Shown here: positions 51,376 through 52,509 of the stretch, in pieces | Numbering within the stretch: position 1 is the stretch's first letter | How the letters are laid out: every line of letters starts with the position of its first letter | Notes under the pieces: model-generated | The model's database searches: none | What the model was told of the DNA's origin: nothing | The model's input: only the letters and a program-made list of their open reading frames with translations | Made by a program: the position numbers and the translations under genes | Source of the DNA: a phage | Direction: 5' to 3' (one strand) | DNA length: 64,000 nt | Assembly (NCBI GenBank): GCA_025677605.1 | Contig: GCA_025677605.1_4110.1

Positions 51376-52509
51376 TTAAAACATTTGTTGAATTGCTTCA
51401 CAACGTAAAACTGAAACAAAATCACGGATTTCAGATGCTTCTAACTCACCGTCTTTTACCAGTTGTTGAATATCTGGAAGTACTACATCAGTGTAACGAT
51501 CATATACCTTAATGATTAAATCTTCAAGGTCTAAATCAATCTCTTTACGTAGAATAAAATATTCCAGTACTTTGTAAAGGAATTCTTCACCGCCGTTATT
51601 CTTGATATTCATATCCAGTAATAATTGTCCCATTTCATTTGGGGTCTTTTTACGGAATGCCTTGATATCATCACGGAAACGTTTGATGTAATTACTGAAT
51701 TTAACGTACTTAACGGGCATTTTAATAGCACCATTCAGTACTGAATCCTCACCAATTTCTTCTTTCTCAAGAAGCACAGACCATAAGAAATATGGCTTAT
51801 ATGCTTCAGTACAATTATCAGAGATATGATCAATGAGTTCCAATGACTTTTTGGTTAATGTAGCATTAAATGCTTTTTCATAGTAACCAAACTTACTTAG
51901 TGTTTTAAGGAACTTAGCTGGCTTTTCTTCTGACAGTGCTTTTTCAAATTCAACATAAACACGGTCTGGAACAAGGTGATTTAGCTCACCAGACGCTACC
52001 ATATCGATTGCAAGTGCTTCAGTAGTCTCGTGTATAGAGAAATCAGAATAACGCGTAGCAAAGCGAGCTAGACGTAATACACGCAATGGATCTTCTTTGA
52101 AGTGTTCGGATACATGACGTAGTACTTTATTCTTGATATCAGCTTTACCACCGTATGGGTCGATGTGAATTTGCAGTACTGGATCATACGCGATTGCATT
52201 AATTGTAAGATCACGACGATACAAATCTTGTTCCAGTGTTACACCTTTTGTATCCACTTCGAAGCCACCGTATCCAGTACCAGTTTTTCGTTCAGTACGG
52301 GCTAATGCGTGTTCGTTACCTTCTGGGCTTAGATAAACTGGAAAATCTTTACCAACCTGTTTATATCCAATACTTTCTAAGTATTTGATATCAGATTCAG
52401 TTGCACCAACAATGACATAATCTTTGTCCTTTGCACGAATGCCCATTAGACGGTCGCGGCAGTATCCACCAACAAGGTATTTTTTCATTCTTATTCTCCC
52501 ATCAACCAA
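51376..52509 (-). CDS. tRNA nucleotidyltransferase (CCA-adding enzyme family)
   Basis: Head-domain motifs [10 protein letters not shown]...DKDYV, [21 protein letters not shown]; likely true start MKKYLVGG. Confidence 0.85.
   Translation of the reverse strand: [377 protein letters not shown]

Follow-up and report, generated by a model that had tools for sequence, protein, structure and literature searches.

In a 64,000-nucleotide stretch of phage DNA (GenBank assembly GCA_025677605.1, contig GCA_025677605.1_4110.1), referred to below as the window, we examined the cca gene, which occupies 51376..52488 on the minus strand and encodes a class II tRNA nucleotidyltransferase of 370 amino acids plus the stop codon. 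The assignment is based on the open reading frame (ORF), its ATG and Shine-Dalgarno sequence, matches in Pfam, NCBIfam and PHROG, the homologues, and an AlphaFold2 model. By sequence, motifs and fold the protein belongs with the CCA-adding enzymes; it has no HD domain, and close relatives of the phage carry tRNA genes in which CCA is not encoded. We consider it highly probable (about 0.85) that this is a genuine CCA-adding enzyme, which completes the CCA-less phage tRNAs and repairs tRNA 3' ends during infection.

At the DNA level, the region shares 97% identity with Escherichia phage A4 (genus Asteriusvirus; ON286972.1, 355.5 kb) and 80-83% with 121Q, PBECO4, phAPEC6, G17, Sharanji and others. 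To judge by these identities, the window is part of the approximately 350-kb genome of an Asteriusvirus jumbo phage of E. coli. Public databases already contain an identical protein (100%; P0001), encoded on a 351.6-kb contig, and the same gene is found at the same genomic position in Asteriusvirus and Rak2-like phages (A4_536, 121Q gp539, Sharanji WNN14700.1, GAP32 and XaC1, all in PHROG 2244). Protein identity is 98% to one relative and 55-90% to other genera across the full 370 amino acids. The orthologues have been labelled as tRNA nucleotidyltransferase, CCA-adding enzyme, multifunctional CCA protein, hypothetical protein and, in one record, phosphatase.

CCA-adding enzymes have been described as common in group 2/3 jumbo phages (Iyer et al., PMC7824862) and have been counted among the translation genes of huge phages (Al-Shayeb et al. 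2020), and the papers describing XacN1 and Sharanji list the enzyme beside the phage tRNAs. The gene is thus an ordinary one, annotated in dozens of records and already published for this group of phages. What we add is modest: the start codon is corrected, the HD domain is found to be missing, and conservation is described for the tRNA-Thr and tRNA-Asn genes that lack CCA and for the gene neighbourhood.

Gene start, catalytic motifs and fold

An earlier note, made from the sequence of the window without database searches, had placed the gene at 51376..52509. The ORF does exist there, but the TTG at 52509, which would give 377 amino acids, is an artefact of taking the longest possible frame. 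Reading the sequence directly, we place the start at the ATG at 52488, giving 370 amino acids, which is the length annotated in A4 and that of essentially all homologues. A Shine-Dalgarno sequence, GGGAGA (52495..52500, minus strand), lies 6 nucleotides 5' of this ATG. Immediately upstream is a 40-codon ORF (52491..52613, minus strand), whose TAA stop codon (52493-52491) ends 2 nucleotides before the cca ATG; such an arrangement suggests translational coupling of the two genes. Counterparts of the 40-residue protein were found in A4 (A4_534) and on one metagenomic contig.

Phage A4 contains an additional ORF of 355 amino acids at this junction (A4_535, L001:7686-8753), with a DUF4379 treble-clef zinc-finger motif. 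It sits exactly between the 40-residue ORF and cca, overlapping the cca start by 4 nucleotides, and the corresponding junction in the window is at about 52489-52491. Neither the window nor the other Asteriusvirus genomes contain it, and it resembles an insertion of the mobile or homing type.

The motifs of a nucleotidyltransferase head, which the earlier note had pointed out, are borne out by the Pfam matches to PolyA_pol (6.7e-18) and PolyA_pol_RNAbd (1.7e-7) and by the end-to-end match to PHROG 2244, "tRNA nucleotidyltransferase" (1.3e-113). The catalytic head comprises residues 1-124 (52117..52488, minus strand, as are all gene positions given for the window), with PolyA_pol covering residues 4-124. 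Alignment with E. coli Cca and with the poly(A) polymerase PcnB places motif A, GGYCRD, at residues 7-12 (52470-52453), and the motif A carboxylates in D21-K-D23 (52428-52420). Motif B, RRD, is formed by R91, R92 and D93 (52218-52210), and motif C by D110 and G114. The neck comprises residues 125-207 (51868..52116), with PolyA_pol_RNAbd covering residues 149-207, and contains the nucleotide-selecting template of motif D, EDPLR (52095-52081), as well as motif E (R176, E180 and K183). Motifs B, C, D and E all align with E. coli Cca.

Conservation was assessed in 40 homologues with identities down to 38%. Invariant among them are G7, G8, R11, D12, D23, R91, R92, D93, D110, G114, E132, D133, P134, R136, R176 and E180, and D21 and K183 are conserved in at least 90%. 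The flexible loop between motifs A and B, which differs by one residue in length from that of E. coli Cca, contains a further set of invariant residues (A63, R64, E66, R67, K68, G72 and F76). A full-length flexible loop is needed for the addition of A, and CC-adding enzymes are reported to have a deletion there.

The closest relationship of this part of the protein is with E. coli Cca (b3056), with which residues 1-207 are 52% identical (E=1e-65) and share motifs A-E, the flexible loop and the pattern of insertions and deletions. Among the NCBIfam models the four for CCA-adding enzymes rank first (272, 232, 207 and 202 bits), far ahead of pcnB, with two models at 90 and 46 bits, and of the A-adding model, at 62 bits; the best, NF008137 (multifunctional CCA protein), has a cut-off of 451 bits and is matched over positions 1-201 of its 409. 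From the sequence comparison, we assign the head and neck to the gamma-proteobacterial type of Cca. The catalytic aspartates have the codons GAC for D21 and GAT for D23 (52420-52428), the pattern reported to be fixed at the second position in the cca genes of enterobacteria (PMC6468291); this would fit a head domain that came from enterobacteria.

The body and tail, residues 208-370 (51379..51867), make up the tRNA-binding part, which is all helical and has a sequence specific to the phage clade. Pfam had no match for this region even at E values up to 10, and BLAST detected no similarity between it and the C-terminus of E. coli Cca. Among the 40 homologues only G299 and D330 in the C-terminal half reach 90% conservation, and no conserved set of His and Asp residues was found there. 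The Pfam HD domain is recognized in E. coli Cca with an E value of 2.4e-14 and, again at E values up to 10, not at all in the phage protein. The phage protein is 42 residues shorter than E. coli Cca, with a deletion of about 35 residues in the region of the first HD histidine, and it reads ISDNCTE where the E. coli enzyme has LCHDLGK.

An AlphaFold2 model built from a 40-sequence alignment was confident (mean predicted local distance difference test score 93.3, predicted template-modelling (TM) score 0.86). When it was used as a Foldseek query, the 11 top matches were all CCA-adding enzymes, the best being the Thermotoga maritima structure 3H38 (TM 0.74 over approximately 389 columns, a full-length superposition). 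Lower-scoring matches included the tRNA complex 5HC9, the Geobacillus stearothermophilus structure 1MIV, the A-adding enzyme 4WC2 (TM 0.66) and the poly(A) polymerase 3AQL (TM 0.63). The T. maritima and G. stearothermophilus class II enzymes (PDB 3H37-3H3A, 5HC9 and 1MIV) share the four-part fold of the phage protein from end to end (TM 0.66-0.74) at only 20-23% sequence identity, and they likewise lack the HD catalytic domain. The C-terminal half is therefore modelled as an ordinary helical body and tail that would hold the tRNA, diverged in sequence and having no phosphohydrolase site.

Two other descriptions of this half were considered and rejected. It is not a novel domain, given that the fold search returned the usual class II body and tail. 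Nor is the protein an HD-bearing "multifunctional" Cca, as there is no Pfam HD match, about 35 residues are deleted, and SD stands in place of HD. The widespread labels "multifunctional CCA protein" and "2',3'-cyclic phosphodiesterase/2'-nucleotidase/phosphatase" in A4, Sharanji, phAPEC6 and slurp01 are unsupported because the HD domain is absent; they are over-transferred from E. coli Cca.

Phage tRNA genes without encoded CCA

The window contains no tRNA gene, as the earlier note had stated: ARAGORN found none, and Rfam at its gathering threshold found neither a tRNA nor any other known RNA family. Since the window is 64 kb of a genome of approximately 350 kb, this absence is uninformative. 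The whole-genome tRNA scan that the note had proposed was run on A4, the relative with 97% identity, and found six tRNA genes (Ser-UGA, Gly-UCC, Ser-GCU, Met-CAU, Asn-GUU and Thr-UGU) in one cluster at 304.0-307.1 kb, all six confirmed by Rfam. The A4 cca gene is at 136.7-137.8 kb, about 167 kb away, a distance greater than any 64-kb window, so that the lack of a tRNA gene here is an effect of sampling.

In A4 the two Ser genes and the Gly and Met genes have CCA directly after the discriminator base. The Asn gene (3' end ...CAGAGTC-G-CAAAAC) and the Thr gene (...AGTCGGC-A-CAAAAT) have no encoded CCA. These two have the highest Rfam scores of the A4 tRNAs (71.7 and 67.4 bits), indicating that they are not decayed copies. 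The tRNA-Thr(UGU) gene lacks CCA in all eight Asteriusvirus genomes compared (A4, PBECO4, G17, 121Q, SD-15_S21, BF17, E9.1 and slurp01), and tRNA-Asn(GUU) lacks it in four of five, the exception being 121Q, which has a different Asn gene that encodes CCA. Both CCA-less genes encode only C74, and consequently C and A must be added.

In E. coli, CCA is part of every tRNA gene, and the host's enzyme is used for repair only (PMC6468291, PMC10435456). Because the phage Thr and Asn genes do not encode it, their tRNAs would be obligate substrates for a CCA-adding enzyme in such a host. There is a precedent in phage T4, another coliphage with CCA-less tRNA genes in a CCA-encoding host, in which the addition of CCA is also obligatory: the T4 tRNA-Pro/Ser precursor lacks CCA, and the host nucleotidyltransferase completes the end (PMC11143913; PMC6468291, citing Deutscher, Foulds and McClain 1974). 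T4 depends on the host enzyme, whereas the Asteriusvirus group brings its own.

We propose that the phage enzyme most likely adds C, C and A to tRNA 3' ends without a template. It would complete the phage tRNAs whose genes lack CCA, namely tRNA-Thr(UGU) and, in most relatives, tRNA-Asn(GUU), and it would also restore CCA on phage and host tRNAs that have been nibbled or damaged during infection, making the phage independent of the host's repair enzyme. The earlier note had named host tRNAs or phage tRNAs encoded elsewhere as the likely substrates. Phage tRNAs encoded elsewhere do occur in A4, two of the six without encoded CCA; the choice between phage and host tRNAs as substrates in vivo is one that we infer, as are catalytic activity and full rather than partial CCA specificity.

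Other features of the tRNA cluster were observed in passing. The A4 tRNA-Thr gene (L008:7015-7087) and its orthologues are invariant across the eight genomes apart from the anticodon stem, which occurs in three fully compensated versions (GTTCCT/AGGGAA, AATCCC/GGGAAA and AACTGA/TCAGTA) around an identical loop, CTTGTAA. These versions could be due to diversifying selection, such as escape from nucleases that recognize the anticodon arm, or to swapping of stems by recombination. The A4 tRNA-Ser(GCU), tRNA-Met and tRNA-Asn genes (L008:5521-5771) are separated by gaps of 4 nucleotides and are probably made as a single trimeric precursor, whose last member is the CCA-less tRNA-Asn, an arrangement that can be likened to the dimeric precursors of T4. 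In G17 and 121Q the first tRNA of the trio is called as Ser(ACU) and the length of tRNA-Met differs, from which it appears that the tRNA cluster is evolving quickly.

Gene neighbourhood

The genes surrounding cca all lie on the minus strand. On the upstream side are a lysozyme gene (54474-55400) and, in the same orientation, a ribosomal S30AE/HPF-like gene (54127..54459; Pfam Ribosomal_S30AE, 3.8e-10), which is also found upstream of cca in GAP32 and XaC1. The A4 orthologue of the latter is labelled "putative sigma factor (sigma 54)", a label that seems to have arisen from misreading "sigma-54 modulation protein", the name of the family. Between the HPF-like gene and the 40-codon ORF are two adjacent, overlapping genes of 140 and 138 amino acids (52625-53047 and 53034-53450); they share C-terminal stretches such as ...QY(M/Q)FIDDTFGID..., the 140-residue ORF matches PHROG 20693, and from their sequences the pair appear to be tandem paralogues.

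Directly downstream of cca is a gene for a NUDIX hydrolase (50873..51268; Pfam NUDIX 2.2e-12, PHROG 1185), whose nearest solved structures are generic hydrolases of the Ap4A, RppH and Dcp2 types. The pairing of cca with this gene is kept across genera, in GAP32, XaC1 and a Klebsiella phage. A glutaredoxin gene follows (50620..50868; Pfam Glutaredoxin 4.2e-9), also in conserved synteny, and after it two small ORFs and a terminator-like hairpin (50076-50050), the only one noted. Beyond the hairpin is a macro-domain or phosphatase-like gene (49557..50033), annotated in A4 as a macro domain protein, with a match to Pfam Macro below the cut-off (E=0.005) and one to PHROG 335, "phosphatase" (6.9e-44). 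The gene at 48839..49216 may encode a peptidyl-tRNA hydrolase of the PTH2 type with 125 amino acids; the Pfam match is weak (E=5e-4; 20.6 bits, with the cut-off at 23), a sequence search against solved structures gave no match, and XaC1 and the Klebsiella phage show the same weak match in the syntenic gene. A4 has a separately annotated peptidyl-tRNA hydrolase elsewhere (A4_114). A scan for promoters gave 28 sigma-70-like sites, fewer than the 34.5 in shuffled sequence.

The order HPF-like...cca-NUDIX-glutaredoxin...(YqeY or macro)...PTH2-like-gp13-like recurs in three phages with Cca proteins at 55-68% identity: Cronobacter phage GAP32, Xanthomonas phage XaC1 and the Klebsiella phage. Elsewhere in its genome, A4 encodes an RNA ligase, a polynucleotide kinase/3'-phosphatase, the peptidyl-tRNA hydrolase, a 3'-5' exoribonuclease and IF3. 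This neighbourhood, together with the RNA genes of A4, fits a role for the enzyme in the upkeep of tRNA and translation.

Alternative functions and significance

Several points weigh against a complete CCA-adding enzyme acting on the phage's own tRNAs. None of the NCBIfam CCA models reaches its curated cut-off, since the alignment is confined to residues 1-201. The tRNA genes belong to relatives whose DNA is 97% to 82% identical, not to the genome of the window itself; the host already has a Cca, so that a phage copy is not obviously required; and the literature searched contained no biochemical or genetic test of a phage CCA-adding enzyme. The sequence of the body and tail has diverged, no bacterial CCA model matches there, and the C-terminal region can restrict specificity in this family, as it does in A-adding enzymes. 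The protein might accordingly be an A-adding or CC-adding enzyme, and A-adding structures are also good matches to the fold (for example 4wc2, TM 0.66). We think such a partial activity improbable: the head and neck are nearest the full CCA-adding enzyme of the E. coli type, the flexible loop is kept with its one-residue difference in length, and the A-adding model NF041569 scores 62 bits (cut-off 1440) against 272 for the CCA model. No second tRNA nucleotidyltransferase of the family is annotated in A4 that could supply the other half of the reaction, and for the CCA-less Thr and Asn tRNAs C as well as A has to be added. A poly(A) polymerase, adding A tails to RNAs and so promoting the decay of host or phage transcripts, would share the Pfam head domain, which is common to both enzymes and named after the polymerase; E. 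coli PcnB belongs to the same superfamily, has the head-domain catalytic residues in common and is detectable in the fold search (3aql, TM 0.63). The earlier note had raised the possibility that the motifs belong to a poly(A) polymerase clade, and identity, insertions and deletions, model scores and fold all speak for the CCA-adding enzymes instead. Identity to PcnB is 32% (E=4e-16) against the 52% to Cca, and the pcnB models TIGR01942 (90 bits, cut-off 306) and PRK11623 (46 bits, cut-off 702) score far below the CCA models. The phage protein lacks the 58-residue N-terminal extension of PcnB, its three insertions, its GRRF segment and its basic C-terminus. In the segment after motif A, where E. 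coli Cca has QVGRDFP-VFL and PcnB has LVGRRFRLAHVMF, it matches Cca and not the GRRF of the poly(A) polymerase type. On the evidence of identity, indel pattern, this signature segment and the family-model scores, we reject the polymerase. We give as little credence to an inactive remnant or a repurposed protein, such as a non-catalytic RNA-binding factor, since no catalytic residue varies among homologues with identities as low as 38%, several phage genera keep the protein at its full length, and the modelled fold is confident and well formed.

A different emphasis would make the enzyme a specialist in counter-defence, with the rebuilding of tRNA 3' ends attacked by host immunity or toxins as its main role and the maturation of phage tRNAs as a secondary one. 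Toxins that act on tRNA 3' ends are known, and for some a connection with phage defence has been made (PMC10435456, PMC7725324); HEPN toxins, for instance, take off the last four nucleotides, and nucleotidyltransferases of the MenT/AbiEii type extend the CCA end, in the latter case with exonuclease trimming before the repair. Iyer et al. (PMC7824862) grouped phage CCA enzymes with systems that restore RNA ends in conflicts, genomes of this type carry a set of genes for RNA repair, namely the RNA ligase, polynucleotide kinase/phosphatase, peptidyl-tRNA hydrolase and 3'-5' exoribonuclease, and the order cca-NUDIX-Grx-macro-PTH2-like is conserved across genera. We nevertheless regard this emphasis as rather unlikely. 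Nothing links the gene to any defence system, either here or in the literature searched, the enzyme has no HD phosphatase domain with which to clean blocked 3' ends, and the CCA-less phage tRNA genes are a simpler reason to keep cca. Counter-defence is in any case a special case of repair, and overlaps with the explanation that we prefer. A more speculative and still less probable extension is that the HPF-like, cca, NUDIX, glutaredoxin, macro (or YqeY) and PTH2-like genes form one phage module for translation rescue and counter-defence. The HD-less Cca, the NUDIX hydrolase and the macro or phosphatase-like enzymes would then together clean and rebuild tRNA 3' ends that had been cut, extended or blocked by host toxins of the HEPN, MenT/AbiEii or toxSAS type. 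If this were true, the three compensated versions of the tRNA-Thr anticodon stem would reflect the same arms race over tRNA.

To return to the CCA-adding enzyme that we favour, it carries little weight as a discovery, with phage CCA-adding enzymes already catalogued and this gene annotated so widely. The lack of a tRNA gene in a single window is no anomaly for a genome of 350 kb. The conserved tRNA-Thr(UGU) without encoded CCA does provide a concrete and testable substrate, and with it a clean system in which to ask why a phage has its own CCA-adding enzyme when its host already possesses one.

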